Assembly: GCA_965218105.1 (NCBI GenBank)
Contig: OZ244585.1
Coordinates: 2,960,597-3,024,596 of the forward strand
Length of the DNA: 64,000 nt
Origin: Pyrinomonadaceae bacterium
GTDB taxonomy: Bacteria > Acidobacteriota > Blastocatellia > Pyrinomonadales > Pyrinomonadaceae
Direction of reading: 5' to 3'
Shown piece after piece: positions 30,694-64,000 of the stretch (the stretch's first letter is position 1; every line of letters starts with the position of its first letter). The translations under genes were made by a program, and so were the position numbers. The notes below the pieces were generated by a model. It made no database searches. It saw only the letters and a program-made list of their open reading frames with translations, and was not told where the DNA came from.

Positions 30694-30739
30694 TTCGACG
30701 ACCTAATAGAAAGTAAAACTTTTCAAGGAGTTTGAAAGA

Positions 30740-35593: not shown

Positions 35594-35788
35594 ATGCCAA
35601 CAACAGCTTGTCCCGAATGCAGCGAAGACGTTTATGTAGATGCCGAATCAGAACAAGGCGATATTATTACTTGTGATGAATGCGGTTCGGAATTGGAAAT
35701 CGTCGGACTCGACCCGATTGAACTCGATATTTACGCCGATGATATTGACGATCTTGACGACGACGAAGAAGACGAAGATTTTGAGTAG
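35594..35788 (+). CDS. lysW: LysW-like amino-group carrier protein
   Basis: CPECSEDV...CDECGSELEIVGLDPIELD zinc ribbon plus acidic tail ending in Glu, as in Thermus LysW. Confidence 0.72.
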   Translation: MPTTACPECSEDVYVDAESEQGDIITCDECGSELEIVGLDPIELDIYADDIDDLDDDEEDEDFE

Positions 35789-35843
35789 TAATTTGCAATT
35801 GGTAATTCGTAATTCGTTTATAATTTAAAAACTGAAAAATTTC

Positions 35844-35997
35844 TAAGAAGCTGTTTGAAAACTCGACAGTGAGAAGAACTTTAACCACTAAAGCACACTA
35901 CTAAACACGAAATTTGTCTTTTTGTTTTATTTAGTGTTTATTAGTGTAGATTGGTGGTTCCAAATCCGCTAAAAACGAGTTTTCAAACAGCTTCTAA
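35844..35997. repeat. MITE-like element, family 3, copy 2
   Basis: Near-identical to the reverse complement of 9069-9223 along its whole length. Confidence 0.8.
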
Positions 35998-36064
35998 TAT
36001 TTGCCGTAAATAATATTCTGTTTTTCAAATTACGAATTCCGAATTACAAATTACAAAAAAAGAC

Positions 36065-37132: not shown

Positions 37133-37476
37133 CTTTTCAAAGTTCGGAGCGGTTTAAAATTTTACTTGTATATGAAACTTTTATCCGATTTATGAGTTGC
37201 CTCTAAAATATGATTATAACTTAAATCTTCCTCAATTTGATAGATAACTATCATTTTGAATAGTCAAATTGACTGATTTGTTGCCGGCTGAGAATTGTGA
37301 TTGTCGGAATTACCAGCATTCAGTTGACTTTTCGATTCATTATTTTTTGGCACAAAAATTGAATTAGGTCTAATAGACTTAATTTGTAAGTCGTTTTGAA
37401 AAACTAGATTCGCGCGGAAATAATTCCAGCTTACACAGTTGATTAAACCTCTATATTCAAAAGTTACTTTAACAAA

Positions 37477-49439: not shown

Positions 49440-49533
49440 AGTAATTTTGGATTTTAGATTTTGGATTATGGATTTGAAGAAATCGTCAATAATTTACCTC
49501 AAAAACCTTGTCACCAAAAATCGAAAACGATTA

Positions 49534-49551: not shown

Positions 49552-49634
49552 GTTTTTCTATAAGGTTATAACAGAGCGGAAAGGAAAATCAACAGAAATT
49601 TTGCGAAAGCGGAATTTTGCGTTGAAAATGAAAT

Positions 49635-49662
49635 GCGATTTCGGAAAAAAATCCGAAATCGC
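49635..49662 (-). terminator. Stem-loop terminator now following only the truncated tRNA copy
   Basis: gcgatttcgga aaaaaa tccgaaatcgc. On the minus strand it is followed by a T-rich tract and lies immediately 3' of the attL tRNA fragment. Confidence 0.6.
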
Positions 49663-49687
49663 AAATCTAAAATCCAAAATAAAAATG

Positions 49688-49746
49688 TGGCGGAGAGAAC
49701 AGGAGTCGAACCTGCATAGGCTTACGCCCGGTAGTTTTCAAGACTA
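49688..49746 (-). repeat. attL: 59-bp duplicate of the tRNA-Ser 3' half
   Basis: Base-for-base identical to 63802-63860. Lacks the tRNA 5' half. Confidence 0.9.
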
Positions 49747-49880
49747 AAAACGCCCTTTTTTAACCAATAAACATACCCGCTTCAAACCCTATTACAAATC
49801 CTGAAATACTTGTCAATGAATAACTTACGAGATATTTCAATTGTTTAGAACAATTGCCCGAAAAGTGTCAACTATTTAAT

Positions 49881-49904
49881 TTTGGGGTAAAAAACGGGGT
49901 AACG
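49881..49904. repeat. 24-bp island-internal direct repeat, left copy (possible arm-type integrase site)
   Basis: tttggggtaaaaaacggggtaacg, identical at 63722-63745. Contains an internal GGGGTAA duplication. Confidence 0.6.
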
Positions 49905-50005
49905 TTTTTTTTCATATAATACAGGAAAAATAAGGCTTTTGCGTGTTTTTAATAACTAGAACGGGTTGAAAAAAACTCGAATAAATTAAAAATGGAGCAA
50001 ACGCT

Positions 50006-51157
50006 ATGAGCAAAAAAATTAGAAAATACAAAGAAAGAGGCATTCGAGCCGAATTTTCGGCGGTCAATAATTTAGGAGTCAGAGAATACGAAGCAAAGAC
50101 TTTTAACGAACATAATACTCAAAAACGTAACGAGCGTTCGGCAAACGACTGGTTAAATAAAACAGCTAAAATTTTTCAGGCGAAAGGCACATTGCAAAAT
50201 GAAGACCTAACTTTTGCCGCTTATGTCGAAATGAAGAAAAAAACTCATTTGAAGGAAGCCGTCATCAATAACGGGAAACGAGTTTCGGGCTTAAAAGGCT
50301 TTGACGCACACGGAATATACTATTTGAATCCGTTAGTCGAAAAATTCGGGAAAGCGAAAATTCGGCTTATTACGGCGCACGAAATTGACGTTTATCGAAA
50401 TGAGAGATTAGACGATAAGAAAGATTCGGGAAAAACCTATAAAGGCACAACACGAACGATTGCGACTGTGAACCGTGAATTATCACTATTGAGAAAAATC
50501 TTTAATCTTGCGTTACAAGACAGAGTAATAAATTTTACGCCGAAATTCTCAATTTCGATGGCAGATGAAAATTCACGGGAACGAATTTTAGACTATGCCG
50601 AACAAGCAAGGTTAATAGAAGCATTCGACTATCGCAACAAACAAGGCAGACAAACCGTGTTGCATCTCAAACCAGTTATTATTTTCTTACTAGACACGGC
50701 TTGCAGATTCGGCGAAATGAAAAAATTGGAATGGAGGGATGTCAATTTTGACACCGGCATTATTACGCTTAGGGCATCGAATACCAAAACAGCCAAAGAA
50801 CGCATTATACCGATGTCGGAGCGTGTAAAGAGTGAGTTAAATAAATTATACGAATCAAAAATAAATGAATCGGTCTTTAACATCACGGAAGCTAGACGCG
50901 GTTGGAAAACACTCTGCAAAGCCGCCGACATTACCGGATGCCGCATCCACGATTTACGTCATACGGCAATCACTAATTTTGTTCGTTCGGGAATGCGAAC
51001 GGAGATAGCAATGGCAATTTCAGGTCATACCGAACTGCGAACTTTTCGCCGCTATTTGAACTTTATGAAAGATGATTTTATAAATGCTTTTGAAAGTTTC
51101 CAAACTCATTACATCGCACAGCAAACGCCCGAAATTGTCAGTGTGGCTAACAACTAA
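50006..51157 (+). CDS. int: Tyrosine recombinase/integrase
   Basis: TACRFGE (Arg), HDLRHT (HxxR), GHT, RRY (Tyr). 383 aa. Confidence 0.92.
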   Translation: MSKKIRKYKERGIRAEFSAVNNLGVREYEAKTFNEHNTQKRNERSANDWLNKTAKIFQAKGTLQNEDLTFAAYVEMKKKTHLKEAVINNGKRVSGLKGFDAHGIYYLNPLVEKFGKAKIRLITAHEIDVYRNERLDDKKDSGKTYKGTTRTIATVNRELSLLRKIFNLALQDRVINFTPKFSISMADENSRERILDYAEQARLIEAFDYRNKQGRQTVLHLKPVIIFLLDTACRFGEMKKLEWRDVNFDTGIITLRASNTKTAKERIIPMSERVKSELNKLYESKINESVFNITEARRGWKTLCKAADITGCRIHDLRHTAITNFVRSGMRTEIAMAISGHTELRTFRRYLNFMKDDFINAFESFQTHYIAQQTPEIVSVANN

Positions 51158-51182
51158 TCGTTTCCAGAGGGAAAACGTAGGG

Positions 51183-51216
51183 AAAGCCGTCTAAAAGGCA
51201 AAATGGACGGCTTTTA
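51183..51216 (+). terminator. Stem-loop terminator after int
   Basis: aaagccgtc ... gacggcttt followed by T. Confidence 0.6.
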
Positions 51217-51325
51217 ATAAGAGTTTTAATAACAGTTTTTGAAAATCTTTCACGCACCTATTTAATGCAAAGTAGCATCTGAAAAAACTTTTTATCAAAA
51301 CGACTATTACAAATAAAGTAACAAC

Positions 51326-51547
51326 TTGTCAGAGGCAAAACCAATTATGTTTGATGATACTGGAATCGTAGAATACGAAATCGAAAGGGAAAAGTGGAAC
51401 GACCAACCCGAAACGAACTTTGATGCAATTCAAACAAAGTCAGGTTACGGCGGATGCGGATGTTTGAGTTTGAAGGCTTTTTTATTATTTTTTGCCGGAA
51501 TGATGCTTTTCCGTCTGTTCGGCGACGTGCTAAAATTTATTTTTTAG
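51326..51547 (+). CDS. Small protein with a C-terminal TM helix
   Basis: 73-aa ORF (possibly starting at the internal ATG). Hydrophobic tail LKAFLLFFAGMMLFRLF. Confidence 0.4.
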   Translation: MSEAKPIMFDDTGIVEYEIEREKWNDQPETNFDAIQTKSGYGGCGCLSLKAFLLFFAGMMLFRLFGDVLKFIF

Positions 51548-51627
51548 CAATATTGTTTGTATCTGACATTGGAATTTTTTATTGTAAATTTAAGTATTAA
51601 ATATTAGCTTCAACCCAAGATAAAGTT

Positions 51628-52833
51628 ATGGATAAACTCTCATTTTCTCTACCAAAATATGATTTTGCTTTTAACAATTTTTATAACGATTTATACGATG
51701 ACCTACATTTACAAGATGAACTTTTGAGAAGATTTCCGCCTAAGTTAATGGCTCATTCTGGAACAACCAGATGGCTTAGTAAGCCCGATGTTTTAGAAGC
51801 CCCTTATAGACAACATAAGAATACTACAAGCGGTGAAATTGAAATTATTACTAAAACCGATGCCCTTAAATTTAAGGAGTTTTTACAGAATTTGATAATT
51901 CCTATAAGAGATAAGGTTAAAGAACACACAATAGAAAATATTAACCAAACCTGTGAGATGACGGGAAATAAAGTAGATGCCGTAAATCAAAATGTTTGGG
52001 ATGCTTATATCGAAGCCATTGAAAAAATGAAAATGGTTTTCGATGAAGATGGCAATCCGAATTTTTTGATTCATCCGCCGGAGTTTTACGAAAAACTTTC
52101 AAAAACCGACCCAACAGTTGACCAGAGAAATAAAATTGGAAAAATCTTTGGGAGAAAGAGAGAAGAATATATTTTAAGAAAAGGTTCTCGAAAATTAACC
52201 AAATCAAATCGCAAATCCAGACAAGTAGTTTCTGAATTAAATGTTGATGTTAGTTCCCTTAAATTTAATTTATCTTTACCTCAATATGAATTGGCAATAA
52301 CTCAACTACTTAGAGATGTAAATAATGGATATGAACAATTAGATCCTATTTTAAGTCAAGTCCAGAAAGTCCCCGTAGCTCACGATGGCTTTACTCGTCA
52401 GGTGAGCGAACCTACTATTCTTGAAACCCCAATGAAAGATTATTTAGTAGATACTTCAATAAAGTTAGATTGTTTCCGTAATACAGATACCGAATATTTT
52501 CGGGATTTTCTTTGGAAAATGCTAGAAGAAATTAATGGTGAAGTAAAAAAGCATATATTTGAGACGATTTCTCAGACTTGCGATGCTACTGGAAATAGTG
52601 TTGACGCAGAAGGAAAAAACTTTTGGGATTCCTACAATGAAATGTTAGAAACTGCTGATATGCGTTTTGATGAAAACGGAAACCATAATTATAAAATTTA
52701 TATCCACCCCGACAGGCGCAAAGATATTGAGGCTAATCCACCATCAGAAAAACAATTAACAAAAAGTAAAGAAATTATCGAAAGGAAGAAGCAAACTTAT
52801 TATGCTCAGAAACGCACTCGAAGATTATCTTAA
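51628..52833 (+). CDS. Unknown protein made of two homologous halves of about 190 aa (cargo gene A)
   Basis: 401 aa. Residues 4-190 and 210-400 align, for example INQTCEMTGNKVDA/ISQTCDATGNSVDA. No family recognised. Confidence 0.7.
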   Translation: MDKLSFSLPKYDFAFNNFYNDLYDDLHLQDELLRRFPPKLMAHSGTTRWLSKPDVLEAPYRQHKNTTSGEIEIITKTDALKFKEFLQNLIIPIRDKVKEHTIENINQTCEMTGNKVDAVNQNVWDAYIEAIEKMKMVFDEDGNPNFLIHPPEFYEKLSKTDPTVDQRNKIGKIFGRKREEYILRKGSRKLTKSNRKSRQVVSELNVDVSSLKFNLSLPQYELAITQLLRDVNNGYEQLDPILSQVQKVPVAHDGFTRQVSEPTILETPMKDYLVDTSIKLDCFRNTDTEYFRDFLWKMLEEINGEVKKHIFETISQTCDATGNSVDAEGKNFWDSYNEMLETADMRFDENGNHNYKIYIHPDRRKDIEANPPSEKQLTKSKEIIERKKQTYYAQKRTRRLS

Positions 52834-54415
52834 CTCAATAATTGAAAGAGATTTCGATTATCCACTTACTTCGCTTTTACAAGCTAAGGGATTTTACGAC
52901 ATTCATTTTACTCACGGTAGAAATGAAATTGGAAAGGACTTTATAGCAAAAAAACTCGAAAATGGAATTGAATATCAGTATGCAATTCAATCTAAAAGGG
53001 GAAATATAGGTCAGCCAGACCTTGACAAAATACAAGGTCAATTACTATTAGCCTCAATTTCTGGATTGTCCCATCCGCAATTTAATAAAAGTCTGGAACG
53101 CCGAGTTATATTAGTAACAACTGGAAGGCTTATTGGGAATGCTCCAATAATTCTTCAAGATTTTAATGATGTATTAGAAAATGAATATCAAAAAAATGGA
53201 ATTGAATTTTGGGGACAGGAGCGACTTATTCAAGATGCAGACGAATTTGGTTTTTCGGGCATACATCAAAATACTGCCAGAGAATTAAAAGGAATCAGTC
53301 AGTTTTACCTAACATACAGCAAAGCTATTGAGGGTAATTTATCCGACAGAGAAATTGAAGAATTTTCACAGCTTTGGTTAGATGAAAAATTAGATTATAA
53401 GAAAAGAATTTTTAGAGCATCAATAGAAGCAGAAATCATTGCGTCTAAACTTATTGAAGGTGAACAACTCTATGAAGCAATGATAACGTATTTAAGTCTT
53501 GCTAGAGTTGTAATGCAAGTAACTTACGAAACCGATGATAATTTTGTTATTGAAATTTATAAAGAAATTCTAAATGAGAAAATCCTTACATTTTGTAGAA
53601 AATTCATCAATCAAATAAAAACAGAATGGGAACAGGTTGGGCGTTCATTATTACACCTCTGTTTAAGACATAGTTCTTTTCCTATGCTTCATTATATTAT
53701 TTGGTGTGTGAGGGTATCTGAAATAGCTTCTCTAAACTATTTTCTAACTCAAGATGAATCCGAAAAAAATGAGGTTATAGAATTTATAAAGAGTTTTAGT
53801 GAAACGGAAGAAGGTTTCGGGCATCTTCCAAGTGATAGATATGCAGTTTCTTTGGTTTGGATAATACTTGCTTTACTGCAATCTGATAAGCGAGAAGAAG
53901 CAATTGAAATAGTAAGGGAAAGCGCAATATGGCTTTTTGACCGTGTTGAAAATGGGTTTGGATTAGCTCGTTATGAAGCAGACGAACAAACAGAAACTAA
54001 CACTTTACTCGGTTATCCTTTTGACTTTGTAAATGTTCAAAAAAATACAAGTTCTTTCCTTGCTACAATTCTTGCTGACCTCGCCGCTTTTATTGGCGAC
54101 AAAGAATTTTACAGCGATATTATAAATGATATTCAGGCTTGTGAAATTTCATACAACTATTGGCAATTTCCAGATACAAGAGCAATTTTCACAATTTTGA
54201 CGGAAGAGTGTAGAAACTTTTCAAATATTCCACATCAAGATTCAATAAACAATTTCGATGATTTTGAATATGCCTCACATTTAAAAGATGAGCCAAAATC
54301 ATTTCAAATTACTGATAAAGTAGGAAACGAAAGTCTGATTTTGTTATCTGTCTTACTCAAAGATAGATATTTTCCTACAATGTGGAAACAAATAATTTCA
54401 AGCAAAAGAATTTAA
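52802..54415 (+). CDS. Mrr-cat-like PD-(D/E)xK nuclease domain fused to an unknown helical domain of about 380 aa (cargo gene B)
   Basis: FDYPLTSLLQAKGF..GRNEIGKDFIAKK..YAIQSKRGNIG..VILVTTGRL matches the Mrr catalytic-domain pattern. Overlaps gene A by 32 nt. Confidence 0.72.
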   Translation: MLRNALEDYLNSIIERDFDYPLTSLLQAKGFYDIHFTHGRNEIGKDFIAKKLENGIEYQYAIQSKRGNIGQPDLDKIQGQLLLASISGLSHPQFNKSLERRVILVTTGRLIGNAPIILQDFNDVLENEYQKNGIEFWGQERLIQDADEFGFSGIHQNTARELKGISQFYLTYSKAIEGNLSDREIEEFSQLWLDEKLDYKKRIFRASIEAEIIASKLIEGEQLYEAMITYLSLARVVMQVTYETDDNFVIEIYKEILNEKILTFCRKFINQIKTEWEQVGRSLLHLCLRHSSFPMLHYIIWCVRVSEIASLNYFLTQDESEKNEVIEFIKSFSETEEGFGHLPSDRYAVSLVWIILALLQSDKREEAIEIVRESAIWLFDRVENGFGLARYEADEQTETNTLLGYPFDFVNVQKNTSSFLATILADLAAFIGDKEFYSDIINDIQACEISYNYWQFPDTRAIFTILTEECRNFSNIPHQDSINNFDDFEYASHLKDEPKSFQITDKVGNESLILLSVLLKDRYFPTMWKQIISSKRI

Positions 54416-54665
54416 TTTTGTTAAATTTATTGGATTACATTCTATATTGCTCTCTCATATCTCTATAACTCTGCTCATCCATTCCTGATTTGAGTTCTGG
54501 AAACTTGTTTGTTTCATAGAATTGGTTTTCACCCATTTTGCAAATACTTGAGTATTCATTACCTTTAATATCTTTATAAGAGGCTGCAATCATTTCCCCT
54601 TTTATCATAAACGGTAATTCGACTATTCCATTGGAGGCAATAGGATAAAAAGAAATTTGAGTTCC

Positions 54666-54917
54666 CTACTTATCATCTGAATCTTTGAGGGAAAATATAA
54701 TTGACATTGCAACGCCTTGACCGACGTTTTTAATTTGCCACGTTTCTGTTCTTATCCGAGAGAAAACTAACACAGGCATAATACTGGCTTTCTGCGTTTT
54801 GTAAAAAGAATAATACGAAAAGCCGAATGCAAAAAGAGACACAATCAAAGACAAAAGTGCAATTGATAATTCCATAATCAAACTTAATATGGAGTTAATT
54901 ATATTGGAAATCATCAA
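54666..54917 (-). CDS. Small 2-TM membrane protein
   Basis: 83 aa with two hydrophobic helices. The same frame reopens immediately after its TAG stop. Confidence 0.5.
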   Translation of the reverse strand: MMISNIINSILSLIMELSIALLSLIVSLFAFGFSYYSFYKTQKASIMPVLVFSRIRTETWQIKNVGQGVAMSIIFSLKDSDDK

Positions 54918-55203
54918 CTTTGTCGAGATTCTGACAAAGCCGTTTCACCGGCATTTACTATTTCTATCAGAAGAGATTTTATATGTAAATGGTTTTTCAA
55001 TTGAGAGTTTCAAGAATTTTTAGGTCTTCATTATTAAAGACAGTAACGATTTTAAGATTTTCATAATTTAATTTTGTTTTTACGAATTTAACGAACTTAT
55101 TGTAAAGTATTTAATAACAATTCAGAAACGGTTTTTATAAACTTAGTAACTCAATCTGAGCGATTACGAATGAAGTATTCGTAAAACATAATAAAGTAAA
55201 AAA

Positions 55204-57435
55204 ATGGACAAATTATTTTCAGACTTTGATTTTTCATCACTCGATTCACCCGATTTCAAAGAAGATTCGGTTCGAGAAGATTTGATAATGCCGATTCTTA
55301 AAGAACTCGGTTATTCATCACAGAGCGAAAATAAAATAATTCGTAGTAAATCTGTTCGGCATAAATTAGTTCAAACAGGTTCGGGCAAACACAAATTAAA
55401 TAGTATTCCAGATTATTTATTAGAAGTCGGCGGAAAATACGTTTGGGTATTGGACGCAAAAGCACCGAACGAAGACATAAAGACCGGAAAGAATGTTGAA
55501 CAAACTTATTTTTATGCGATACATTCGGAAATTCGAGTAGAGTTTTATGCTGTTTGCAATGGTAGGGAATTTATTCTTTTTCACATTAGCCAACCCGAAG
55601 CCGTTCTTTATTTTTCACTTCCTGAAATCGAAAAACACTGGCACGAATTAGAAAAACATCTTTCGCCGAGTGCTTTTGATAAGTCGCAAAATAAATTTGA
55701 AAGAACCAATGCAGAAATTGAATTTGACTACCTTTCTAAAAATGTTCTGAATGAAATTAAAAGTATTAAAAAACAATCTTCAAAAAGACATTTCGGAGTT
55801 CACGGTTATTTTACAAAACAGGCATTTCAAATTCTTCAAAAATATATTGAAAATTTCACGAAGCCAAACGATTTAGTTCTCGACCCATTCGGCGGAACGG
55901 GTGTAACACTAATTGAATCTTTGATACTTGGAAGAAGGGCAATTCATATTGACTTAAATCCTTTATCAGTATTTTGGGTAAGAACTTTGATTGAGCCTGT
56001 AAATTTTGAAAGCATCTTTAATGAATTTGACAGAATAAAAAATGAGTTCAACTCGAATAAACCGACAACTAAAATTGCTATTGAAAGATTTCTTGAAAAA
56101 TATCCGTTTCCAAGCGGAATAAAACTTCCGAAAACATCAGATGTTGACACAATAGAGAAATTGTTTAGTAGAATTCAGTTATCACACTTGGCATATCTCA
56201 AGCACTTGATTTTACAAGTTAAGGATAAAAAAGTTAGAAACCAATTATTACTTGCGTTTTCCAGTTCTCTTAATAAATTTAATTTAACTTTTCATTATAC
56301 AAAATCAGACGGTGGCGGCGATTCTGCTGTGTTTCGTTACTATCGTTATCGAATTGCGCCAAGTCCGGGCATTTTGGATTTAATGAATATCTTTGAAACA
56401 AAACTAAAGAGGCTGATTTCGGCAAAAAAAGAAATCTTACCTTTAATAAACACAAAAACAATTCAGAACTCACAAATTGAAAAAGGCACAGCAACGAACC
56501 TAGATAAAATAGAAAATGAATCCGTAGATTATATTTATACAGACCCACCCTATGGAAAGAAAATTCAATATCTCGACCTTTCGATTATGTGGAATTCTTG
56601 GCTTGATTTTGAAGTTTCCGAAGCAGATTACGAATTAGAAGCTATTGAAGGCGGCGAACACAAAAAGACAAAAAATGACTATTCAAATTTAATTGCCGAA
56701 TCAATTAAAGAAATGTATAGAGTTTTGAAATTTGACCGTTGGATGTCGTTTGTTTTTCAACATCAAGACCCTGCATACTGGCATTTAATTGTAGATACGG
56801 CGGAAAAAGTCGGTTTTGAATATGCGGGAGCAGTCAAACAAAACAACGGGCAATCAAGTTTCAAGAAAAGACAGAATCCTTTCACAGTTCTTTCCGGTCA
56901 ACTAATTATCAACTTCAAAAAAGTTCGTAACCCAAAATCAATTATGAAAGCAGATTTAGGGGCAGACATCACCGATTTAATTACTCAGTCAATCGAAGGT
57001 ATAATTGCTAAAAACAACGGCGCAACGGTTGATGATATTAACAATGAATTGATTATTAGAGGCTTAGAACTTGGCTTCTTAGATGTTTTGAGTAAAAATT
57101 ATGCAGATATTACACCATTTTTATTAGCTAACTTTGATTATCACGAAGACACACAAACCTATCACCTAAAGAAAAATACAAAATTTAAGGCACATATCCC
57201 GGTTGAAGTGAGAATAAAATATTATGTTGTTTCGATGATGCGGAGACTAGCAAGACAAAATGAATATCCGAGTTTTGATGATATAATTTTAGAAATTATG
57301 CCGCTTTTGCGTAATGGTATAACACCCGAACATCAAACAATTCTCACAGTTTTAGAAGACATTGCAATTCAAGTCGGCGGCGACCAATGGAAATTAAAAG
57401 AATCAGGTCAGGGAAATTTATTTGACTTAGTATAA
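55204..57435 (+). CDS. HsdR_N-type PD-DxK nuclease fold fused to a DNA (N6-A/N4-C) methyltransferase (cargo gene C)
   Basis: IPDYLLEV..VWVLDAKAP (residues 68-88), LVLDPFGGTGVT (AdoMet motif I, residues 224-235), IYTDPPYG (motif IV, residues 445-451). 743 aa. Confidence 0.82.
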   Translation: MDKLFSDFDFSSLDSPDFKEDSVREDLIMPILKELGYSSQSENKIIRSKSVRHKLVQTGSGKHKLNSIPDYLLEVGGKYVWVLDAKAPNEDIKTGKNVEQTYFYAIHSEIRVEFYAVCNGREFILFHISQPEAVLYFSLPEIEKHWHELEKHLSPSAFDKSQNKFERTNAEIEFDYLSKNVLNEIKSIKKQSSKRHFGVHGYFTKQAFQILQKYIENFTKPNDLVLDPFGGTGVTLIESLILGRRAIHIDLNPLSVFWVRTLIEPVNFESIFNEFDRIKNEFNSNKPTTKIAIERFLEKYPFPSGIKLPKTSDVDTIEKLFSRIQLSHLAYLKHLILQVKDKKVRNQLLLAFSSSLNKFNLTFHYTKSDGGGDSAVFRYYRYRIAPSPGILDLMNIFETKLKRLISAKKEILPLINTKTIQNSQIEKGTATNLDKIENESVDYIYTDPPYGKKIQYLDLSIMWNSWLDFEVSEADYELEAIEGGEHKKTKNDYSNLIAESIKEMYRVLKFDRWMSFVFQHQDPAYWHLIVDTAEKVGFEYAGAVKQNNGQSSFKKRQNPFTVLSGQLIINFKKVRNPKSIMKADLGADITDLITQSIEGIIAKNNGATVDDINNELIIRGLELGFLDVLSKNYADITPFLLANFDYHEDTQTYHLKKNTKFKAHIPVEVRIKYYVVSMMRRLARQNEYPSFDDIILEIMPLLRNGITPEHQTILTVLEDIAIQVGGDQWKLKESGQGNLFDLV

Positions 57436-57585
57436 AATCTTGAAAGTATAAATTTACTAGAGGTTTCGTGATATTGGAGCTTTTAACTTTGTCGGATTAG
57501 ATGAAAATTTTTGGCTTTGTGTCTAAAGTCGATTTTGAAACGGACTTTTGAGATTGGTTAAGCAAGTTTTGAAAAAAACAAAAAT

Positions 57586-57643
57586 AAATGGAGGGGCAAC
57601 TGCCCTCCATTTAAATAAACGGAGGGCAGTTGCCCCTCCATTT
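57586..57643. terminator. Nested-palindrome bidirectional terminator
   Basis: aaatggaggggcaactgccctccattt aaat aaacggagggcagttgcccctccattt. Each arm is itself near-palindromic. Confidence 0.7.
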
Positions 57644-57783
57644 ATAGGTTAAGTTGCTAACTATATTAACCCGTTCGGTTTTCTGTGAAATCTCTTGACA
57701 AACAAAAAGCAAACAATTAACATCTAAGTATTGTCCGAAGATGTTATTTCTAACATCTTCGGGATTACCGTGAAGTTATTTAT

Positions 57784-57942
57784 CTAAGGATTTTTATCAA
57801 AAAACTTGTTAAGGTTGTCTAGAGCCATAGCAAGTTTTTTTTCTTGATGCTTCTTTTTAGAAAAGTGAATTACTTCAAACACCAAGAAAGTGAATCCAAA
57901 TCCGTAGTAAACGAAAGCGGCAATGATATGGATATATTCCAT
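57784..57942 (-). CDS. Small membrane protein (52 aa), not in the ORF track
   Basis: My own translation is MEYIHIIAAFVYYGFGFTFLVFEVIHFSKKKHQEKKLAMALDNLNKFFDKNP. GGAGGT lies 8 nt upstream of the ATG. Confidence 0.45.
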   Translation of the reverse strand: MEYIHIIAAFVYYGFGFTFLVFEVIHFSKKKHQEKKLAMALDNLNKFFDKNP

Positions 57943-58260
57943 TATTTTACCTCCGCATTTAGTGCGATTTGTAGCTCACAGAACAACGGGACAATCCCAT
58001 TGCCCCGAACATTCATTATATTAAATGAAATTTTTAAGATGTGCAAAATAAGAGGTAATTATAAATAAAAACAGTGCATTGAAATGTTTGCTAACCTTTC
58101 GGCAGATGCTTTTTCCTAAAACCTTTAGATTTCACTCAATAAAATTACTTCAAAACTAAATTATGAAAACTTCAATTCTTAAAATACTTTTCGTGTGTTT
58201 ATTTGTGTCTAGTGCAAGTTACGGACAAAAATCTTTGTATTCAAATTATTCCATTACAGT

Positions 58261-58533
58261 TCAATAATCCGATAATCCTTTTACCATTCGGCTTGTCGGT
58301 AAATCCGACAATTTATCCGGCAAATTAGATAGTAAGTCATCTATTAAATTTGGAGATTCAAAATTATTAACAGCCTCGCAAAACAGGCAGGCGAAGCGGC
58401 AAAAATTAAATATAGCTACGTTATTTATTATTAAAATCTGCGAATCAAGACAAACTTTTCCCAAAAATTTATGGCATTTTTTGCACTTGAAATTGTAATC
58501 CCGAAATCGTAAAGGTTTGTCGTAATTGTCCAT
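58261..58533 (-). CDS. Small zinc-ribbon protein
   Basis: KCKKCHKF ... CLFCEAV cysteine pairs. 90 aa. Confidence 0.5.
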   Translation of the reverse strand: MDNYDKPLRFRDYNFKCKKCHKFLGKVCLDSQILIINNVAIFNFCRFACLFCEAVNNFESPNLIDDLLSNLPDKLSDLPTSRMVKGLSDY

Positions 58534-58876
58534 ACAAAATTTTTGAGCCTGTAAATCTCACGCAGATAGAGAGTTAAGCTATATTTTTTAGTAGTTTATA
58601 AACTCTTAATACCAATATAAGCAGTAAGTGAAAATATAGCTTAAATTAGTGTGTGTAAAGGTTTTATCCGTTCATTTTTGATGTCGGTAGTTTGGTATAT
58701 CAGAATTTGGTATATCCGTATTTCACCGGAAAAAATTTTTTTTGGTGGAGTTTTCAGCCACCCTTTTATCAGGAGCGTGATTTTTGTTGCGGACACAGAC
58801 ACAGGCATATACCAGAATAAATAAGCCCTACCCTTTGTAAAATGATGACGGCATCGAAAAAACAGTCTTTCCAAAA

Positions 58877-59245
58877 TCAGTAATTTTTTTGGAGTTGTTT
58901 TTCAAACTCTAATTTGCGCTGTGCATTTCGTTTCGTTGTGGCATTTTTGACTTGTATTTGAGGCACAAGGGTTTTTTCAAGTTCAGCCCTTATCACCAAT
59001 CGTTTTATTTCTGCCAAGCTACGCTCCACCGCAAAATTTTCATCTAAATCTGGAATGCCGGTAGAGTCTTCGATGTAACCAGAATCTGAAAAACTCGCAA
59101 ATTTCGATTGAGATTCAAATTTTCGCTTCAATTCTGCTAATCTGCGTTTGCGCTCCGAATCGTCAATACTCGAATTTAAGTAATCGAAGTGAGATTTTTG
59201 CGAAAGATATTTTGCTAATTCAATTTTATTCATCATTTGTAACAC
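58877..59245 (-). CDS. Coiled-coil hypothetical protein
   Basis: 122 aa, charged heptad-like sequence. Overlaps the upstream ORF by 20 nt. Confidence 0.5.
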   Translation of the reverse strand: MLQMMNKIELAKYLSQKSHFDYLNSSIDDSERKRRLAELKRKFESQSKFASFSDSGYIEDSTGIPDLDENFAVERSLAEIKRLVIRAELEKTLVPQIQVKNATTKRNAQRKLEFEKQLQKNY

Positions 59246-59621
59246 CCGTTAATTTATTGAGTTTTGCCGTCAAGATTTTCAAATCTTTTCGGTCTTGAGA
59301 AACGCCTTGTTCAAAAAAAGAAAGTTCAAGATTTGCTTGATTAAGTTGTCTTTGCGCCGCTTCAATTTGAGGTTCGATAATCCGCACGGCATCTATTTTA
59401 CCTTTTATCGTTTGCAATAATTGTTCACGCTTTTCACCCGAATTCGATTGACGGTTTTTTATTTCGGCAATTTCACGCTCTAAAGTTTGAACTTCGCTAC
59501 TACTCTGATTTTTGAGTAAACTTTCACGCTCCAAAATCAGTTTTTCGTATTTATCACGATTTTCAGATGTTTTGAAAATCGAAGATATTTGTTTATCTAA
59601 TTCTGTAATATCTGTATTCAT
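59226..59621 (-). CDS. Coiled-coil hypothetical protein
   Basis: 131 aa, Glu/Lys/Gln-rich heptads. Confidence 0.5.
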   Translation of the reverse strand: MNTDITELDKQISSIFKTSENRDKYEKLILERESLLKNQSSSEVQTLEREIAEIKNRQSNSGEKREQLLQTIKGKIDAVRIIEPQIEAAQRQLNQANLELSFFEQGVSQDRKDLKILTAKLNKLTGVTNDE

Positions 59622-59638
59622 AATTTTTTATTTTCAGA

Positions 59639-59983
59639 TTATCCGAATCTGTTTTTACCTCGTATTCCGTCGAATTTTGAACCGATAAAAATATCACGCT
59701 GTTTTTCTATTTCGGCAATTTGAGAGCGAAGGTTACGAACATCATTTTCAGCTAAGTATTTTAATGCTGTCCAACCGGCGTGTAATTTTGTCATTTCTAC
59801 AAATTCAATTGTCATTTCATCAATTTCAACAGCTAAAGAATCCATAGATTTTTTATGTGTTTGGGCAAGTTCGAGTTTGTTTTCAATCTCTAACTCTAAT
59901 CCCATAATCATTCGCTGAAATGCCAATTTCTTTTCTCCAAAACTATTGGCTTCGACTTCTTGACGCTCCGATTCGTTTTCCAT
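59639..59983 (-). CDS. Coiled-coil hypothetical protein
   Basis: 114 aa, helical. Confidence 0.5.
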   Translation of the reverse strand: MENESERQEVEANSFGEKKLAFQRMIMGLELEIENKLELAQTHKKSMDSLAVEIDEMTIEFVEMTKLHAGWTALKYLAENDVRNLRSQIAEIEKQRDIFIGSKFDGIRGKNRFG

Positions 59984-60199
59984 TTTTGATTTGCTCCATT
60001 TATTAAAATTTGGACGGAGCGAATAGTTGAAATAAACGCTCCGAGTCCGGCAAAGCCAACTGAATAAGAAGAATTATATTTGTTCAATTGGTTAATTAGA
60101 ATGTAGCATTTTGGGCAGTAGAAGTCAAGATAAATTGTGCAAACAAAGGAGTTAGTATATCAGGATAAATAATACATCGTAGTTTTGAGTAAGTCGTTA

Positions 60200-61171
60200 T
60201 TAATTCAAACCAATACAAGTTTGCTCCAAAATCAAATAGTCTGCCAAATCAAAGCCGTCGGTTAGTTCTTTACTGGTTGCGTTGTCTTTAATCAGTTTTG
60301 AGATAGTTACATCAAATCCATTCTTACGAGCCGTTTTAGTTACTTCATTCCATTCGTCAAAACCGTCTGCGTCCGGGTAAAGAATTATTTTCTTTTCACG
60401 TCCGAGCCTATTGAGTTTTTCCGGCTTCAAATTCTGTTTTGCGCCGATAGAGAGCCAAATGTATTCGGGAAAACAAATTGAGGCAATGACGGCTGTTTTT
60501 TCAGCTTCGACAATACAGATATTTTTATTTGAATTATTACGAATTAGATGTTCGCCAAAAAAGCATTGCTTCAAATTAAAATCGTTTCTAACTTTTTTGT
60601 ATTTTTTGAGTTCGGTGTGTATCCAATTCGGTTCTATTGATTTGATACGTTTTCCGGTCTGCGAATCATAGGCAATTATTTTTCCCGTGCGGATTCGCAT
60701 ATTTTTATCAATTTGCCAGAAACAAGTTTTGCCGTCCGGTGTAGTGCCTATAAAATAATCTTTGACAGCGATTTGAATTTCATCAAGAAAATTCGGGAAA
60801 AGATTTATCAGAAATTGCACAAATGAGTTTTGTTCATAATTTTGCAGAGAATCGAATAAATATTTGTTTTCAATAAAGTCGCATCTTTTCCGCAAAATTT
60901 GAGCTTCATATTTTGTCTGTGAGCCGTTTTTGTTATTAAAGTAAGGGTTTAATATTCGTTTGTTTTTAGCTTCGACACGGGCTTGCGGATTATTGGCAAA
61001 ATACATTTTCGGCTTAAAATGATAGCCGCATTTGCTTTCTCTGTCGCACCGTCCGACATCATCAGATACATAGTCGCCTGTATTGTTATCCACATACCGC
61101 ACAAAAGTTTTTTGTGAACAATCCGGGCAAATATATTTTCTTGAGCCTTTTTCTAATGGAAATCTATACAT
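60200..61171 (-). CDS. Zinc-finger/Toprim DNA primase-like protein
   Basis: CPDCSQ...CDRESKCGYH zinc finger. CIVEAEKTAV (Toprim Glu) and LYPDADGFDEW (DxD). GGAG upstream of the ATG. Confidence 0.78.
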   Translation of the reverse strand: MYRFPLEKGSRKYICPDCSQKTFVRYVDNNTGDYVSDDVGRCDRESKCGYHFKPKMYFANNPQARVEAKNKRILNPYFNNKNGSQTKYEAQILRKRCDFIENKYLFDSLQNYEQNSFVQFLINLFPNFLDEIQIAVKDYFIGTTPDGKTCFWQIDKNMRIRTGKIIAYDSQTGKRIKSIEPNWIHTELKKYKKVRNDFNLKQCFFGEHLIRNNSNKNICIVEAEKTAVIASICFPEYIWLSIGAKQNLKPEKLNRLGREKKIILYPDADGFDEWNEVTKTARKNGFDVTISKLIKDNATSKELTDGFDLADYLILEQTCIGLN

Positions 61172-61185
61172 TTTTCTTTCTCCGA

Positions 61186-61343
61186 GTGTTCACGGTGTTC
61201 ACGCCTATCGTGAACGTGAACACTATGTTTTTTATTTAATCAATACATTAAATTTTGATATTTCATATATTTACAAAGATTGCGAATTTATGTTCACAGT
61301 GTTCACGTTCACGGCAAGTGTGAACACCGTGAACACCGTGAAC
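61186..61343. promoter_or_regulatory. Iteron-like GTGTTCAC/GTGAACAC clusters flanking a 67-bp AT-rich spacer (candidate ori and/or operator)
   Basis: Cluster 1 at 61186-61223 (2 forward plus 2 reverse copies). AT-rich spacer at 61224-61290. Cluster 2 at 61291-61343 (3 forward plus 3 reverse copies), mostly at 9-bp spacing. Confidence 0.65.
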
Positions 61344-61345
61344 GC

Positions 61346-62452
61346 TCAACTTTTTAGATATTTATTGACCGCTCCCACAGAAATACCTAATTCATCCGCT
61401 ATTTTTCTTTGACTTTCTCCCATCGCCGAAAGTTTTTTTGCTTGCTCAATCAATTCGTTGCGGTCTTTTTCTGTAATCACTTTCAAATGTTCGCTTTCAC
61501 GGGCGAAGCCTTCAAAAGAAAATCTGAGAAAATTATCCGGCTTTTCAATCTGGCAAAGATGCACATTTCCCGCATCAAACTTCATCTCGACATTTCTAAC
61601 TTTGATTTGTTTGAGGTAGCGCAACCCGTTTTCCCGTGAACTTTTACCAATCGAAAAAGACGAATCGCAAAAATTCATCAGCATTTTCGAGCCTTGCAAA
61701 TCATTGTTAGTGATTGGTTTTGACGAATCTAGTTTCGGTGTATGTGCGAGGGCTAAAATTGAAAGGTTATATTTGTTTTTTAGTGCTTTAAGATGTTTCA
61801 TCAAAGGCAGAGCGTCCTTTGCCCTTTCGTTTTCATTCTTTAGGTAAGTAAGATTATCAATAATTAAAACTTTCGCACCCGTTTCGGCAATCGTTCGATT
61901 AAGCGAATGATTGAGGTAATCTTCAAAAGTTGCAAAACCCTTTTCAATATCGGCGTTTGGATTGATTTCCGCACGAATGAAATTTTCATCAAAATTAAAG
62001 TGGTTTGTGAAATAACTATTGCCGATTAGTTTTTCCGAATAACGTGCTTCAAACTGTTTATCGGATAATTCAAAGTCAAAATAAATAACTTTTTGTTTAT
62101 CAGTTTCAATCTCTATATTTCCGATGTTCTCACCTTTTGAAATTGCGTCGGCTATTTGCACGGCTAAAATTGATTTGCCGATATTGGTATCAGCAAACAA
62201 AATACATATTTCACCTTCAAACCAAAATTCACCGAAAAGCATTTTCGGCACAGGTCTTTTTTTTGCATCTTTAAGCCAGTTGTTCGCCGTTTGAGTCTTG
62301 AAGAGATTTGGAAAATCTTCGTCTTCAAATACTCGTGTTTTGCCGCTTGAGTTAAAATTCTCTTCGGCTTCGGCACGGATGGCATCAGAGTCTATTAGTT
62401 GTTTTGTTTGACCGCTTGTGGAAATTACGGTATCATTATTTTGATTATTCAT
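61346..62452 (-). CDS. RepA/AAA_25-like RecA-fold ATPase with a C-terminal HTH
   Basis: Walker A FADTNIGKS, Walker B KVLIIDNLTYL, C-terminal SQRKIADELGISVGAVNKYLK. Start set at the internal ATG (MNNQNND), which has an upstream GGAG. Confidence 0.78.
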   Translation of the reverse strand: MNNQNNDTVISTSGQTKQLIDSDAIRAEAEENFNSSGKTRVFEDEDFPNLFKTQTANNWLKDAKKRPVPKMLFGEFWFEGEICILFADTNIGKSILAVQIADAISKGENIGNIEIETDKQKVIYFDFELSDKQFEARYSEKLIGNSYFTNHFNFDENFIRAEINPNADIEKGFATFEDYLNHSLNRTIAETGAKVLIIDNLTYLKNENERAKDALPLMKHLKALKNKYNLSILALAHTPKLDSSKPITNNDLQGSKMLMNFCDSSFSIGKSSRENGLRYLKQIKVRNVEMKFDAGNVHLCQIEKPDNFLRFSFEGFARESEHLKVITEKDRNELIEQAKKLSAMGESQRKIADELGISVGAVNKYLKS

Positions 62453-62930
62453 TAAGTTTTTACTCCATATAGAAAAATTTAGTGGTAACGGCAAAAACAA
62501 GTATCATTTTCGGTAATCTGTTTTTGCCAAACATTCAGGACAAAAAATGTATCCGTCGTCGCTCCAACTTCGTCGGATATTTTTTTGCTTTCTAGTATTA
62601 TATTAAGATATTCGAGATATGTCGAATTAAATCTTTTGTTTTCTTATATTTACATCAGGAAAAATAATAACAGTCAAGGTAAAATTTGCACAAAAAAAAC
62701 AGCCTAGATAATTAAGCCGAATATATTTAGCGTTTCGTTTTTCAGCAACTGTTTTTAATCAGATACTCTTTTCAAATCGTTAAGCATTTCTCATCTATTT
62801 ATTCACAATGTAAAACATAGTTATACTAAACTAAATACTATTAGTTATCGCTCAAATGTGTTGTTTGCTTGCGACAAAAACAAAATTACTAAATTGAGTT
62901 GAAATTGTCAAGGAATTTTTGAAATCGCCT

Positions 62931-63134
62931 TTATTTATCGGCGTTTGAGAGTTTTTTTGGTCTGCCGACCTTGCCATAAACTTTTACTTTTTCCGCATCC
63001 GTTCGCTTAATCATATTCACACGCCCGAATTTTGTAGCCGGAATAATGCCGTCAATTATCATTGTTCTAACCCGTCCATCTGACAAGTTAAGAAGTTTTG
63101 CCGTTTCTTGTGTTGTTAAAAGTTTTTTATCCAT
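62931..63134 (-). CDS. xis: Excisionase-family (MerR-like) HTH protein
   Basis: LLTTQETAKLLNLSDGRVRTMIIDGIIPATKFGR. Start at the internal ATG. Confidence 0.68.
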   Translation of the reverse strand: MDKKLLTTQETAKLLNLSDGRVRTMIIDGIIPATKFGRVNMIKRTDAEKVKVYGKVGRPKKLSNADK

Positions 63135-63311
63135 ATTCACAGAATATAACCAATAATCCGATACTTCCAAAATAAGACGGAAGAGTTTTATAAAACAATT
63201 GAATTATTTAAGACGAAAACGTCTTATTTTTGAAATAACACAGTCATTATAACTTTATATTTAATAAGAGGTTAGATAAATAACCCAAAAATTAAAACGG
63301 AGCTAAAAACA

Positions 63312-63581
63312 ATGATTGAATTAAATAAAGAAAATATCGAAAAAGCCATCGAAAAAGCACGGGCAACAAAACCACTGGTCAAAATTATTGAATTTCGCCG
63401 ATACAGCGTAACCAATCGAGAAACGGGCGCAAACTACACGGTCAATTTTTACAAAATCGGAGGTCGGAAGTTCGGCGAATGCGACTGCAAATGCGGTCAA
63501 CAAGGTAAGTATGTTTGCAAACACATCGCCGCTAGTTTGCCGATACACTTGGTTTTGGCATCGCAAGCACAAGCGATATAA
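63312..63581 (+). CDS. SWIM zinc-finger protein
   Basis: CDCKCGQQGKYVCKHIAA matches CxCx(n)CxH. Confidence 0.7.
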   Translation: MIELNKENIEKAIEKARATKPLVKIIEFRRYSVTNRETGANYTVNFYKIGGRKFGECDCKCGQQGKYVCKHIAASLPIHLVLASQAQAI

Positions 63582-63721
63582 GCCGAATGAGAAAAGGCTC
63601 TCTAATCAAAAGACAGTCTTTGTTTTTTATTTCAGATTAAATTATAAATGTGAGTAGTTCTTTGAAAACGTGCAAAGGTTAAGTAGATTTTCCAATATCG
63701 AAAAAAGTAAAAATTTAAGAC

Positions 63722-63745
63722 TTTGGGGTAAAAAACGGGGTAACG
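63722..63745. repeat. 24-bp island-internal direct repeat, right copy
   Basis: Identical to 49881-49904. Confidence 0.6.
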
Positions 63746-63801
63746 GGCAAAATAATCGGGTATTCCAAAAAGTAAAACCTTCGTGAAATACCCGTAAATA
63801 C

Positions 63802-63886
63802 TGGCGGAGAGAACAGGAGTCGAACCTGCATAGGCTTACGCCCGGTAGTTTTCAAGACTACTGCAATACCATTATGCGATCTCTCC
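63802..63886 (-). tRNA. tRNA-Ser (anticodon UGA)
   Basis: GGAGAGA acceptor pairing with TCTCTCC, G73 discriminator, encoded CCA. Anticodon stem GTAGT/ACTAC with loop CTTGAAA, long variable arm, TTCGACT T-loop. Confidence 0.9.
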
Positions 63887-64000
63887 GCATTTTCCGGCGG
63901 AAATAAAAAATATAGCGCAAATTCAGGCGAGAAACAAATCAAATTTATTAATTCGACACTGATTTTCGCCAAAACAAAAGCATAGCTTATTTTGCGACGG

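Follow-up and report, generated by a model that had tools for sequence, protein, structure and literature searches.

A 14.1-kb integrative element in tRNA-Ser(UGA) of a Pyrinomonadaceae bacterium, a likely mosaic of integration, replication and defence modules

The window studied here is a stretch of 64,000 nt of contig OZ244585.1 from a Pyrinomonadaceae bacterium, and all coordinates, those of an earlier sequence-only reading included, refer to this whole stretch. Its tRNA-Ser(UGA) gene is occupied by 14.1 kb of DNA that very probably represent a site-specific integrative element, acquired not long ago and to all appearance intact, which is built as a mosaic from three modules and moves between cells by hitchhiking. 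Judged from its genes and sites, the first module would be an Acidobacteria-specific integration unit (integrase, an attP with a 59-bp core identical to the tRNA, paired arm sites and a substitute hairpin), the second a replicon widely shared with Bacteroidota, and the third a putative defence-type cargo consisting of orf401 with an Mrr-like nuclease and of a nuclease-methyltransferase fusion. A mosaic origin is proposed because homologs of the helicase are rich in Bacteroidota, close homologs of the integrase are all acidobacterial and the GC content differs by module (39% for the integrase gene int, 42% for the gene of a SWIM zinc-finger protein, 32-34% for the cargo).

Results

Borders of the insertion and the empty site

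The ends of the element are marked by three features:

49634..49663, minus strand: native intrinsic-terminator hairpin of tRNA-Ser, host DNA (terminator scan, fold, empty site of the closest relative, L001)
49688..49746, minus strand: att core copy 1, the 59 nt from the 3' end of tRNA-Ser that were displaced and are still attached to the host terminator (exact repeat)
63802..63886, minus strand: intact tRNA-Ser(UGA), of which 63802-63860 is att core copy 2 (ARAGORN, Rfam)

A repeat finder returned an exact direct repeat of 59 bp at 49688-49746 and 63802-63860, spaced 14,114 bp apart, just as the sequence-only reading had described it. A single tRNA was called in the 64-kb window, tRNA-Ser(UGA) at 63802-63886 on the minus strand (ARAGORN; 57.1 bits in Rfam). 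Since this sole call covers the right repeat, the latter is part of an intact gene, of which it forms the 3' 59 nt from the anticodon stem to the CCA end, and the left repeat is a fragment; it is truncated at its 5' side, and neither ARAGORN nor Rfam called it as a tRNA. The placement of the intact tRNA at the right end, with a left copy lacking its 5' half, was therefore correct. Direct repeats of the 3' part of a tRNA, one copy completing the gene and the other remaining as a fragment, are what is expected of a tRNA island.

The DNA between the repeats (49747-63801, 14,055 bp) has a GC content of 34.0% vs 46.3% for positions 1-49687, which puts figures to the AT-richness that had been noticed by eye. 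Every 14-kb stretch of the flank has at least 44.7% GC, and in 1-kb bins the maximum of the insert (36.5%) stays below the minimum of the flank (37.2%). Dips of 1-3 kb to 37-40% GC occur in the host flank at 3001-5000, 15001-16000, 30001-31000 and 35001-38000. The sequence-only reading had drawn the element from 49635 to 63886; an element is indeed present there, but the displaced terminator at one end of this span and the 5' part of the tRNA at the other belong to the host. The element itself consists of 49747-63801 and a single copy of the 59-bp core.

Comparison with related genomes that lack the insert, proposed as a check by the sequence-only reading, yielded an empty site. A search of the species-level genome collection with the FadD-like protein encoded left of the insert returned 229 relatives, and the best 80 loci were compared; the record titles of these 80 mostly read Pyrinomonadaceae, Pyrinomonadales, Blastocatellia or Acidobacteriota, and it is from such titles of metagenome-assembled genomes with shared flanking genes that the host was assigned. 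In the closest relative, L001 (OZ244558.1, a Pyrinomonadaceae metagenome-assembled genome), the FadD-like protein is 96% identical, and the order without insert is upstream flank, intact tRNA-Ser(tga), hairpin, tetR and fadD, with the tRNA 937 bp upstream of fadD. When L001 was aligned, the right flank of the window (63887-64000) and the tRNA ran unbroken into its left flank (hairpin, intergenic region and tetR). In 54 of the 80 loci, the syntenic relatives, tRNA-Ser(tga) lies 680-1740 bp upstream of fadD and next to tetR, and none of these 54 carries a second tRNA fragment or an insert. The site is thus unoccupied in L001 and in the 54 syntenic relatives, as befits the target of a tRNA island.

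The hairpin beside the left fragment was read at the outset as probably the original tRNA terminator (49635-49662), displaced by the integration, and this proved right. It has 12 pairs, six of them G-C, followed by the tail TTTCATTTTC, and lies 24 nt past the left tRNA fragment on the tRNA strand. Its fold of -22.8 kcal/mol (z = -7.0) was not equalled by any of 200 shuffles. Taken together, the features described by the sequence-only reading go far beyond what chance would produce. In L001 the hairpin directly follows the tRNA, with one compensatory exchange of C-G to T-A in the stem relative to the window. The comparison with L001 therefore demonstrates the insertion, its exact borders and the displacement of the native terminator. 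Since there is no insert among the 54 syntenic relatives, the acquisition was recent, and some form of horizontal transfer must accordingly have occurred.

The tRNA-Ser of the window is identical in sequence to that of five related genomes and represents the commonest variant among the relatives, so that nothing unusual has to be invoked for the two copies of the repeat to be identical. Overwriting of the host tRNA by element DNA, as a difference from L001 in the T-stem might have suggested, was considered and rejected, L001 being the odd one out. The tRNA-Ser(UGA) of L001 (8980-9064) departs from the consensus at five T-arm positions (GTGGG...CCCTC vs GCAGG...CCTGT); the same variant was found in one other genome, and the flanks of L001 are very similar to those of the window despite it.

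Two further features of this host region are conserved in L001. A heptad array of ATTTTGG lies just upstream of tetR (49444-49475), and an inverted imperfect partner of it is found between the terminator and the tRNA fragment (49649-49688; 40-nt arms, 83% complementary). Together they may constitute an operator or promoter feature of the tetR-fadD operon.

Integration module

The genes of the window were assigned by scanning all open reading frames (ORFs) of at least 50 aa against the Pfam, PHROGs, NCBIfam and PADLOC families. These searches confirmed the distal integrase, the Xis-like helix-turn-helix (HTH) protein, the replication module and the cargo that had been recognised from the letters. 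The genes and sites of the integration module are:

49881..49904, plus strand: arm-type site on the integrase side, 2 x GGGGTAA in 12-nt register, 135 bp inside the core
50006..51157, plus strand: tyrosine integrase, 383 aa (Pfam Phage_integrase 4.8e-20; PHROG_1 1.4e-41)
62931..63170, minus strand: excisionase-family HTH protein, recombination directionality factor (Pfam HTH_17 1.5e-08; NCBIfam TIGR01764 'excise' 37.9 bits vs a cut-off of 28.8; PHROG excisionase families)
63312..63581, plus strand: small SWIM zinc-finger protein, between xis and tRNA (Pfam SWIM 23.6 bits vs a cut-off of 19.6)
63722..63745, plus strand: second, identical copy of the arm-type 24-mer, toward the tRNA and at a distance of 57 bp from the core
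63757..63794, minus strand: element-borne hairpin between the right arm site and the tRNA, its start 8 nt beyond the CCA of the rebuilt tRNA, with AUUAUUUUG behind it

The integrase carries the complete R-K-H-R-H/W-Y catalytic set expected for a tRNA island, in the motifs ACRFGE (R), NTKTAKER (K), HDLRH (H..R), SGHT (H) and RRYL (Y). It thus shows none of the decay that the sequence-only reading had named, in combination with a lack of excision products, as a point against its interpretation. Its 255 homologs at E<=1e-20 include close ones, 67-82% identical, all of which are from Pyrinomonadaceae or Acidobacteriota. The gene lies at the end of the element distal to the intact tRNA, a position conserved in the related loci L185 and L187 as well as in L092, L123, L133, L148 and L157.

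The 24-mer TTTGGGGTAAAAAACGGGGTAACG occurs only twice in the 64 kb, in the same orientation, and never in shuffled sequence; the two sites also contain all four copies of GGGGTAA present in the window. In the excised circle the two 24-mers would flank the core, like the arm-type sites of integrases. Two related elements in tRNA-Ser, of the kind that the sequence-only reading had suggested searching for, share this arrangement. L187, whose integrase is 80% identical, has a 55-nt 3' fragment of tRNA-Ser 285 bp upstream of int and four copies of AGGGTAA at the arm position. L185, with an integrase identical at 67%, is a complete element of 9.1 kb between an intact tRNA-Ser(tga) and an exact 67-nt repeat adjoining int, and is the only locus with a true second tRNA copy; pairs of GGGGACA in 12-nt register flank its core on either side and are absent from the rest of the element. 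Orientation and att layout at tRNA-Ser are thus the same in the window, L185 and L187, and this conserved layout, together with an arm motif that covaries with the integrase, supports the reading of the 24-mers as arm sites. In all three elements the identity to the tRNA stops at the anticodon loop (loop sequence TTTTCAAG in L185 and L187), which points to a crossover at this place.

The element-borne hairpin probably serves as a replacement terminator for the rebuilt tRNA. It folds at -20 kcal/mol (z = -3.06; one of 200 shuffles was as good), and L185 has an analogous hairpin with a T-run at the same place (~18830-18878). The SWIM gene is divergent from xis and, in the circular form, points through the att core toward int. 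Homologs of it occur in eight related elements, adjoining xis or att.

Replication module

The replicon has the order excisionase, AAA_25 helicase with a C-terminal HTH, iteron origin and DUF6371 primase-like protein:

61346..62500, minus strand: initiator/helicase-like RecA-fold ATPase (AAA_25, DnaB_C) with C-terminal HTH (Pfam AAA_25 2.7e-19; DnaB_C 27.8 bits)
61184..61347, no strand: putative replication origin between helicase and primase genes (inverted repeats; GTTCACG iterons)
60200..61171, minus strand: primase-like protein with Zn-ribbon and DUF6371, PG0870 family (Pfam DUF6371 1.3e-50, Zn_ribbon_16 1.1e-26; NCBIfam PG0870_Nterm)

The real start of the helicase is probably the ATG at 62452, giving a protein of 368 aa; the database copy (P0001) has this same length. 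Pfam places HTH families at residues 342-383, and the PHROG matches are to primase/helicase and DnaB-like helicase. An AlphaFold model built from 45 homologs reached a pLDDT of 75, with KaiC, T7 gp4 and DnaB as top matches in Foldseek. Sequence searches of the PDB gave no match for either the helicase or the primase. The DUF6371 protein is assigned as a putative primase because of its Zn-ribbon, its match to a crAss-like phage protein annotated 'DNA primase/helicase' (27% identity over 94% of the length) and the annotation of the equivalent gene of MTnBf8 as 'Toprim primase' (PMC13597742).

In the 174-bp gap between the helicase and primase genes, two clusters of direct and inverted GTTCACG surround a 67-nt AT-rich spacer, and eight of the 15 GTTCACG copies of the window are packed into 156 bp here. 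Iterons are found at the same intergenic position in 10 relatives, of GTTCAC or TGTAACA type according to lineage.

Relatives of the replicon

More than 6,500 proteins are homologous to the helicase at E<=1e-10, and many of those at 60-70% identity are named from Bacteroidota (Pontibacter, Ginsengibacter, Draconibacterium). The core of xis, AAA_25 and DUF6371 genes recurs in nine annotated contexts and in 80 metagenome loci, and helicase and primase genes are linked in 61 of 88 loci. Genes of the related loci were called by a longest-ORF rule and clustered by BLAST, so relaxases of unfamiliar type are detectable only in the nine contexts annotated with Pfam.

These relatives vary in integrase, cargo and integration site, the sites being tRNA-Val, -Arg, -Asn, -Ser and the 3' side of mnmE. 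The last is occupied by L091 (7454-16890, in a 4.5-Mb metagenome chromosome) and L099 (6454-~16500, Pontibacter roseus), both directly downstream of mnmE (trmE). The mnmE site is also used by SGI1-type islands in Proteobacteria. The cargo of L091 includes an MmeI-family restriction enzyme.

The slot after the primase gene was found in three kinds: it holds a relaxase gene in Bacteroides, packaging genes in several closer relatives (L092, L123, L110, L113-L120) and neither in the window, L091 and Pontibacter roseus. The first kind includes Tn4555, whose core is a block of AAA ATPase and DUF6371 genes (PMC13183296). The circular Tn4555-like element CP103138.1 of B. fragilis (10,057 bp) carries genes for the AAA ATPase, DUF6371, a mobilization protein, cfxA, HTH, int, transposase and xis. 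In an element of B. xylanisolvens a MobV relaxase gene follows DUF6371, and MTnBf8 has the same gene order (PMC13597742). The helicase and primase of the window are 41% and 35.5% identical to the Tn4555 pair, respectively.

The second kind is closer. L092, located at tRNA-Arg, encodes a helicase identical at 73%, a primase at 56%, a SWIM protein at 45% and an integrase at 39%, together with a small terminase (TerS; PHROG 2538, 5e-10), and L123 has a small terminase too. In seven loci a large terminase (TerL; PHROG_2 8e-35, with Pfam Terminase_6N and 6C above the cut-off) comes after TerS or DUF5681. Terminal overlaps of 123-127 nt in L108 (4,659 nt), L110 (8,737 nt), L117 (8,866 nt) and L136 (8,017 nt) identify these contigs as circular assemblies, hence members of the replicon family do exist as circles. 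The circle of L108 encodes integrase, Xis, helicase and primase only; those of L110 and L117 encode SWIM, helicase, primase, DUF5681 and a split TerL, with no integrase and no recognisable capsid gene.

Two observations on the wider family are added. The 10-kb contig L116 has two different helicase genes of the family (1007-2086 and 8781-9875), each with neighbours of its own, which suggests two related elements in tandem. Five unannotated records of 6-13 kb from human faeces, entitled 'Bacteriophage sp.' (MT836643, MT839118, MT836828, MT837912 and MT836838), encode DUF6371 homologs of 33-35% identity; they may be circular Tn4555-like elements or satellites, not phages.

Cargo and small genes

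The element is organised in two convergent gene blocks around a bidirectional terminator. About half of it is cargo of defence type. The features are:

51628..52833, plus strand: orf401, tandem duplication of an uncharacterised domain of ~190 aa (homolog search; no family match)
52802..54415, plus strand: Mrr-like restriction-endonuclease fusion, 537 aa, with an Mrr domain at residues 15-81 and an unknown C-terminal region of ~450 aa (Pfam Mrr_cat 1.1e-05)
54435..54917, minus strand: two small ORFs, one of 57 aa and a hydrophobic one of 83 aa (ORF list; no family matches)
55204..57435, plus strand: DNA methyltransferase, 743 aa, with an N-terminal PD-(D/E)xK-like nuclease domain (Pfam N6_N4_Mtase 6.5e-20)
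57584..57645, no strand: bidirectional terminator, an inverted repeat with 30-nt arms that are 97% complementary (terminator scan, 20 pairs)
58261..59983, minus strand: four small genes downstream of the primase gene, orf114, orf131, orf122 (coiled-coil-like) and orf90 (Cys-rich), with no significant family match

The long inverted repeats of this terminator and of the putative origin account for the only Rfam matches obtained at a permissive threshold beyond the tRNA, which were sub-threshold 'microRNA' hits.

The methyltransferase displays the catalytic motifs of its class in its translation (DPFGGTG and DPPYG), and in its nuclease-like N-terminal part IPDY...LDAK can be read, with the pattern PD...DAK. 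It matches PADLOC PglX/MTase_II families down to 3e-41 and, in the PDB, MboIIA, DpnA and CcrM. At its N-terminus the matches to HSDR_N (2e-4; 21.6 bits, below the cut-off of 25.1) and MmeI_N are weak. From these matches the 743-aa protein is a candidate single-chain restriction-modification enzyme.

For orf401, 470 cluster representatives were found at E<=1e-3, nearly all of them single-domain proteins of ~190 aa that match either half; Pfam, PHROGs, PADLOC and NCBIfam gave no family match. Because orf401 overlaps the Mrr-like gene by 32 nt, the two probably form one operon, and they may represent a two-gene defence cassette. The Mrr_cat score of the latter, 25.9 bits, is just above the cut-off of 21 bits. 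A near-consensus promoter-like site at 54926-54898 (11 of 12 matches in a promoter scan) accompanies the 57-aa and 83-aa ORFs.

The four small genes occupy the slot where relatives carry mob or terminase genes. Eleven small or unknown ORFs of the window were compared by hhalign with the relatives' TerS, DUF5681, coiled-coil and other conserved clusters, and all probabilities stayed below 2%. The first gene after the primase, orf114 (59639-59983), matched only itself among 5.8 billion protein clusters.

Discussion

By every testable criterion the element is a tRNA-integrated tyrosine-recombinase island of the anticodon-loop type. In 2002 Williams reportedly classified tRNA-integrating islands, with the anticodon loop as one sublocation. 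As in such islands, the block shared with the tRNA starts at the anticodon stem and loop and reaches the 3' end, element DNA has rebuilt the tRNA, and the displaced fragment has stayed with the host terminator; we see no difference in kind.

The sequence-only reading had recognised no relaxase, conjugation, capsid or terminase genes, and the family scans agree: none of the ORFs of at least 50 aa matched relaxase, coupling protein, secretion, capsid, portal, tail, lysis or terminase families. The element is not a prophage, for which capsid, portal, terminase, tail and lysis genes would be expected, and not an integrative conjugative element (ICE), as relaxase, coupling protein and type IV secretion are absent and 14 kb are too small to hold them. 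Without a relaxase, terminase or capsid gene it must hitchhike between cells. Beyond this, the interpretation given by the sequence-only reading was supported, although it had missed the arm sites, the replacement hairpin, the iteron origin, the mosaic of modules and the relatives bearing terminase or relaxase genes, which limit the choice of transfer routes.

A mechanism can be sketched from the gene content. Int would bind the core and the arm sites, and Int and Xis together would excise a circle of 14,114 bp, in which the SWIM gene, attP and int would become contiguous and collinear. The helicase may bind the iterons through its C-terminal HTH, open the AT-rich spacer and recruit the DUF6371 primase, whereby the circle would be amplified from the putative origin. 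The cargo would act as a restriction-type defence.

How such a circle reaches another cell can be explained in several ways. The best supported, tentative as it is, is a phage satellite resembling phage-inducible chromosomal islands (PICI) and Staphylococcus aureus pathogenicity islands (SaPI) or the marine virion-encapsidated integrative elements (VEIMEs). A helper phage would induce excision, the element would replicate from its own origin and be packaged into helper capsids, and the orphan coiled-coil genes would function in interference or packaging. With these satellites, P4-like elements and phage-inducible chromosomal minimalist islands (PICMI), the element shares its size of ~14 kb, a terminal int, an excisionase, and an initiator helicase with a primase. 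In SaPIs the origin adjoins the replication genes and is built of iterons on either side of an AT-rich centre. The element likewise has a putative AT-centred iteron origin beside its replication genes and, as an island within the range of ~10-15 kb, no structural genes. Defence genes, a further likeness, are known from satellites (PMC9618062). The nearest relatives argue in the same direction: at 61-73% helicase identity, L092, L123 and the seven TerL loci carry packaging genes right after the primase, the circles of L110 and L117 combine DUF5681 and TerL with no recognisable capsid gene, and DUF6371 homologs are found in the 6-13-kb 'Bacteriophage sp.' records and in a crAss-like phage.

However, the window copy has no TerS or TerL, no gene for capsid redirection, remodelling or size (Cpm/Sid-like), no capsid of its own and no recognisable Stl-like master repressor, and its small ORFs are unlike the packaging genes of the relatives. 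No helper phage is known, homology to SaPI Pri/Rep or to P4 alpha is not established, and neither the integrase nor the attP junction is represented in IMG/VR. Moreover, the replicon is also present in elements that are not satellites, so that kinship of the replicon leaves the lifestyle unfixed.

We regard as rather unlikely that the element is instead a relaxase-less mobilizable element of 'MGI' type and NBU/Tn4555 descent, on whose cryptic origin of transfer (oriT) the relaxase of a conjugative element in the same cell would act in trans. Its block of xis, AAA ATPase and DUF6371 genes, the pair lying downstream of xis, is the core of Tn4555, in agreement with the gene orders of CP103138.1, the B. 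xylanisolvens MobV element and MTnBf8 and with the identities of 41% and 35.5% to the Tn4555 pair. Tyrosine integrase, HTH_17 excisionase, a size of 10-15 kb, cargo and, for the window presumably, a circular intermediate are further likenesses to Tn4555, NBU1, NBU2 and MTnBf8. NBU1 and NBU2 integrate at the 3' ends of tRNA-Leu and tRNA-Ser, NBU2 using tRNA-Ser, and integrative mobilizable elements devoid of a relaxase are documented (PMC5704250). Tn4555, however, has Mob, TnpA, TnpC and a low site specificity, whereas the window element has none of these, uses a tRNA site with a 59-bp core and resides in Acidobacteriota; the two integrases are unrelated beyond the catalytic domain (25% local identity). 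A tblastn search with Tn4555 Mob, MobV relaxase, TnpA, TnpC and DUF3987 found nothing in the window (E<0.05 for Mob), Mob is absent from the 80 related metagenome loci and relaxase families from the nine annotated contexts of closer relatives. No oriT was identified, and the Mob-bearing elements are the most distant relatives (~40% vs 61-73% for those bearing terminases).

Much the same applies to the comparison with MGIs such as MGIVflInd1, which can be relaxase-less (PMC5704250), and with the tycheposons of marine cyanobacteria (PMC9618062). They too are small integrase islands at conserved sites, the 3' ends of tRNAs or genes, with modular cargo including restriction-modification and transfer via other elements. 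MGIs, however, have an oriT that mimics that of the helper ICE, the like of which was not identified in the window, and no sequence relationship to MGIs or tycheposons was seen.

No more probable, in our view, is an island that still integrates and excises but no longer transfers itself and is kept for the protection afforded by its restriction cargo, with chance spread by transformation, vesicles or generalised transduction. The absence of a transfer gene of any kind, the 'late' genes that are unique orphans, the share of roughly half taken by defence-type cargo and the single copy on record would fit. On the other hand, the element shows no sign of decay: the repeats are perfect, the core genes full-length with intact motifs, the arm sites identical and the iterons well kept. 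Its absence from the 54 syntenic relatives furthermore calls for a recent horizontal acquisition.

From comparative evidence, then, a helper phage that captures the element appears a somewhat likelier vehicle than a conjugative element that mobilises it in trans. The satellite is placed above trans mobilisation and above the non-transferring island because the terminase-bearing relatives (61-73% in the helicase) are closer than the relaxase-bearing ones (~41%).

Two further explanations can be set aside. A remnant of a prophage or conjugative element shorn of its structural or transfer genes is highly improbable; temperate phages do also have int, xis and replication modules, and PHROGs match the integrase, Xis, helicase and methylase, but neither pseudogenes nor remains of capsid, portal, tail, terminase, lysis, type IV secretion or relaxase genes are present, megablast of the whole element against 50,697 phage records gave no nucleotide match, and the compact two-block layout, the clean bidirectional terminator and relatives of 4.7-9 kb indicate that small size is native to the replicon family. 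An assembly or binning artefact, in which a foreign low-GC contig was joined through the shared tRNA sequence, is hardly credible: the source probably is a metagenome-assembled genome, the GC content jumps abruptly and the replicon relatives are mostly Bacteroidota, but both junctions show the exact structure of an integration (fragment by the host terminator, rebuilt tRNA), the integrase adjoining the junction is acidobacterial, and L185 and L187 have an equal two-junction structure in independent assemblies.

Several points nevertheless weigh against the reading of a recently acquired, intact and hitchhiking mosaic. Neither an excised circle, an attP junction nor a close copy of the element was found; the exact proteins of the window are on record in one contig only, and in IMG/VR the integrase had no relatives and neither the attP junction pattern nor the 24-nt arm site a match. 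The four genes of the 'late' slot are orphans, and nothing in the window copy points directly to a transfer route, so the element may be immobile apart from excision. As to the replicon, the helicase is assigned by similarity of fold and family, with a TM score of ~0.4, and the single-sequence AlphaFold model of the DUF6371 protein is unusable (pLDDT 37).

More speculatively, the element may belong to a large undescribed family of small hitchhiking replicons in Bacteroidota and Acidobacteriota, in which one backbone (xis, AAA_25-HTH initiator, iteron origin and DUF6371 primase) swaps between relaxase, TerS with or without TerL, and neither. We hold this doubtful. If true, it would mean that the same replicon switches between conjugation and phage-packaging routes, and the orphan coiled-coil genes of the window might be a new module for the exploitation of helpers. 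Bacteroidota and Acidobacteria would then harbour a major unrecognised class of phage satellites.

Conclusion

Few mobile elements have been characterised from Acidobacteriota, a dominant phylum of soil. The element described here is fully delimited and comes with an empty-site control; its att core and its arm sites are defined, and it has a candidate origin. It might thus be used as a model element in Pyrinomonadaceae or be developed into an integration vector for them. Islands in tRNA genes with integrase, excisionase, replication module and defence cargo are common, and current understanding is not overturned. A Bacteroidota-like replicon (60-70% identity) together with a lineage-specific integrase would illustrate that modules can pass from one phylum to another and there be fitted out anew with the local machinery for integration. 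That one replicon is joined to a relaxase, a terminase or neither is relevant to the question of how hitchhikers exchange one mode of transfer for another. The main value added lies in the clean anatomy of the element, its apparent cross-phylum mosaicism and the hint that relaxase and terminase alternate on one backbone.

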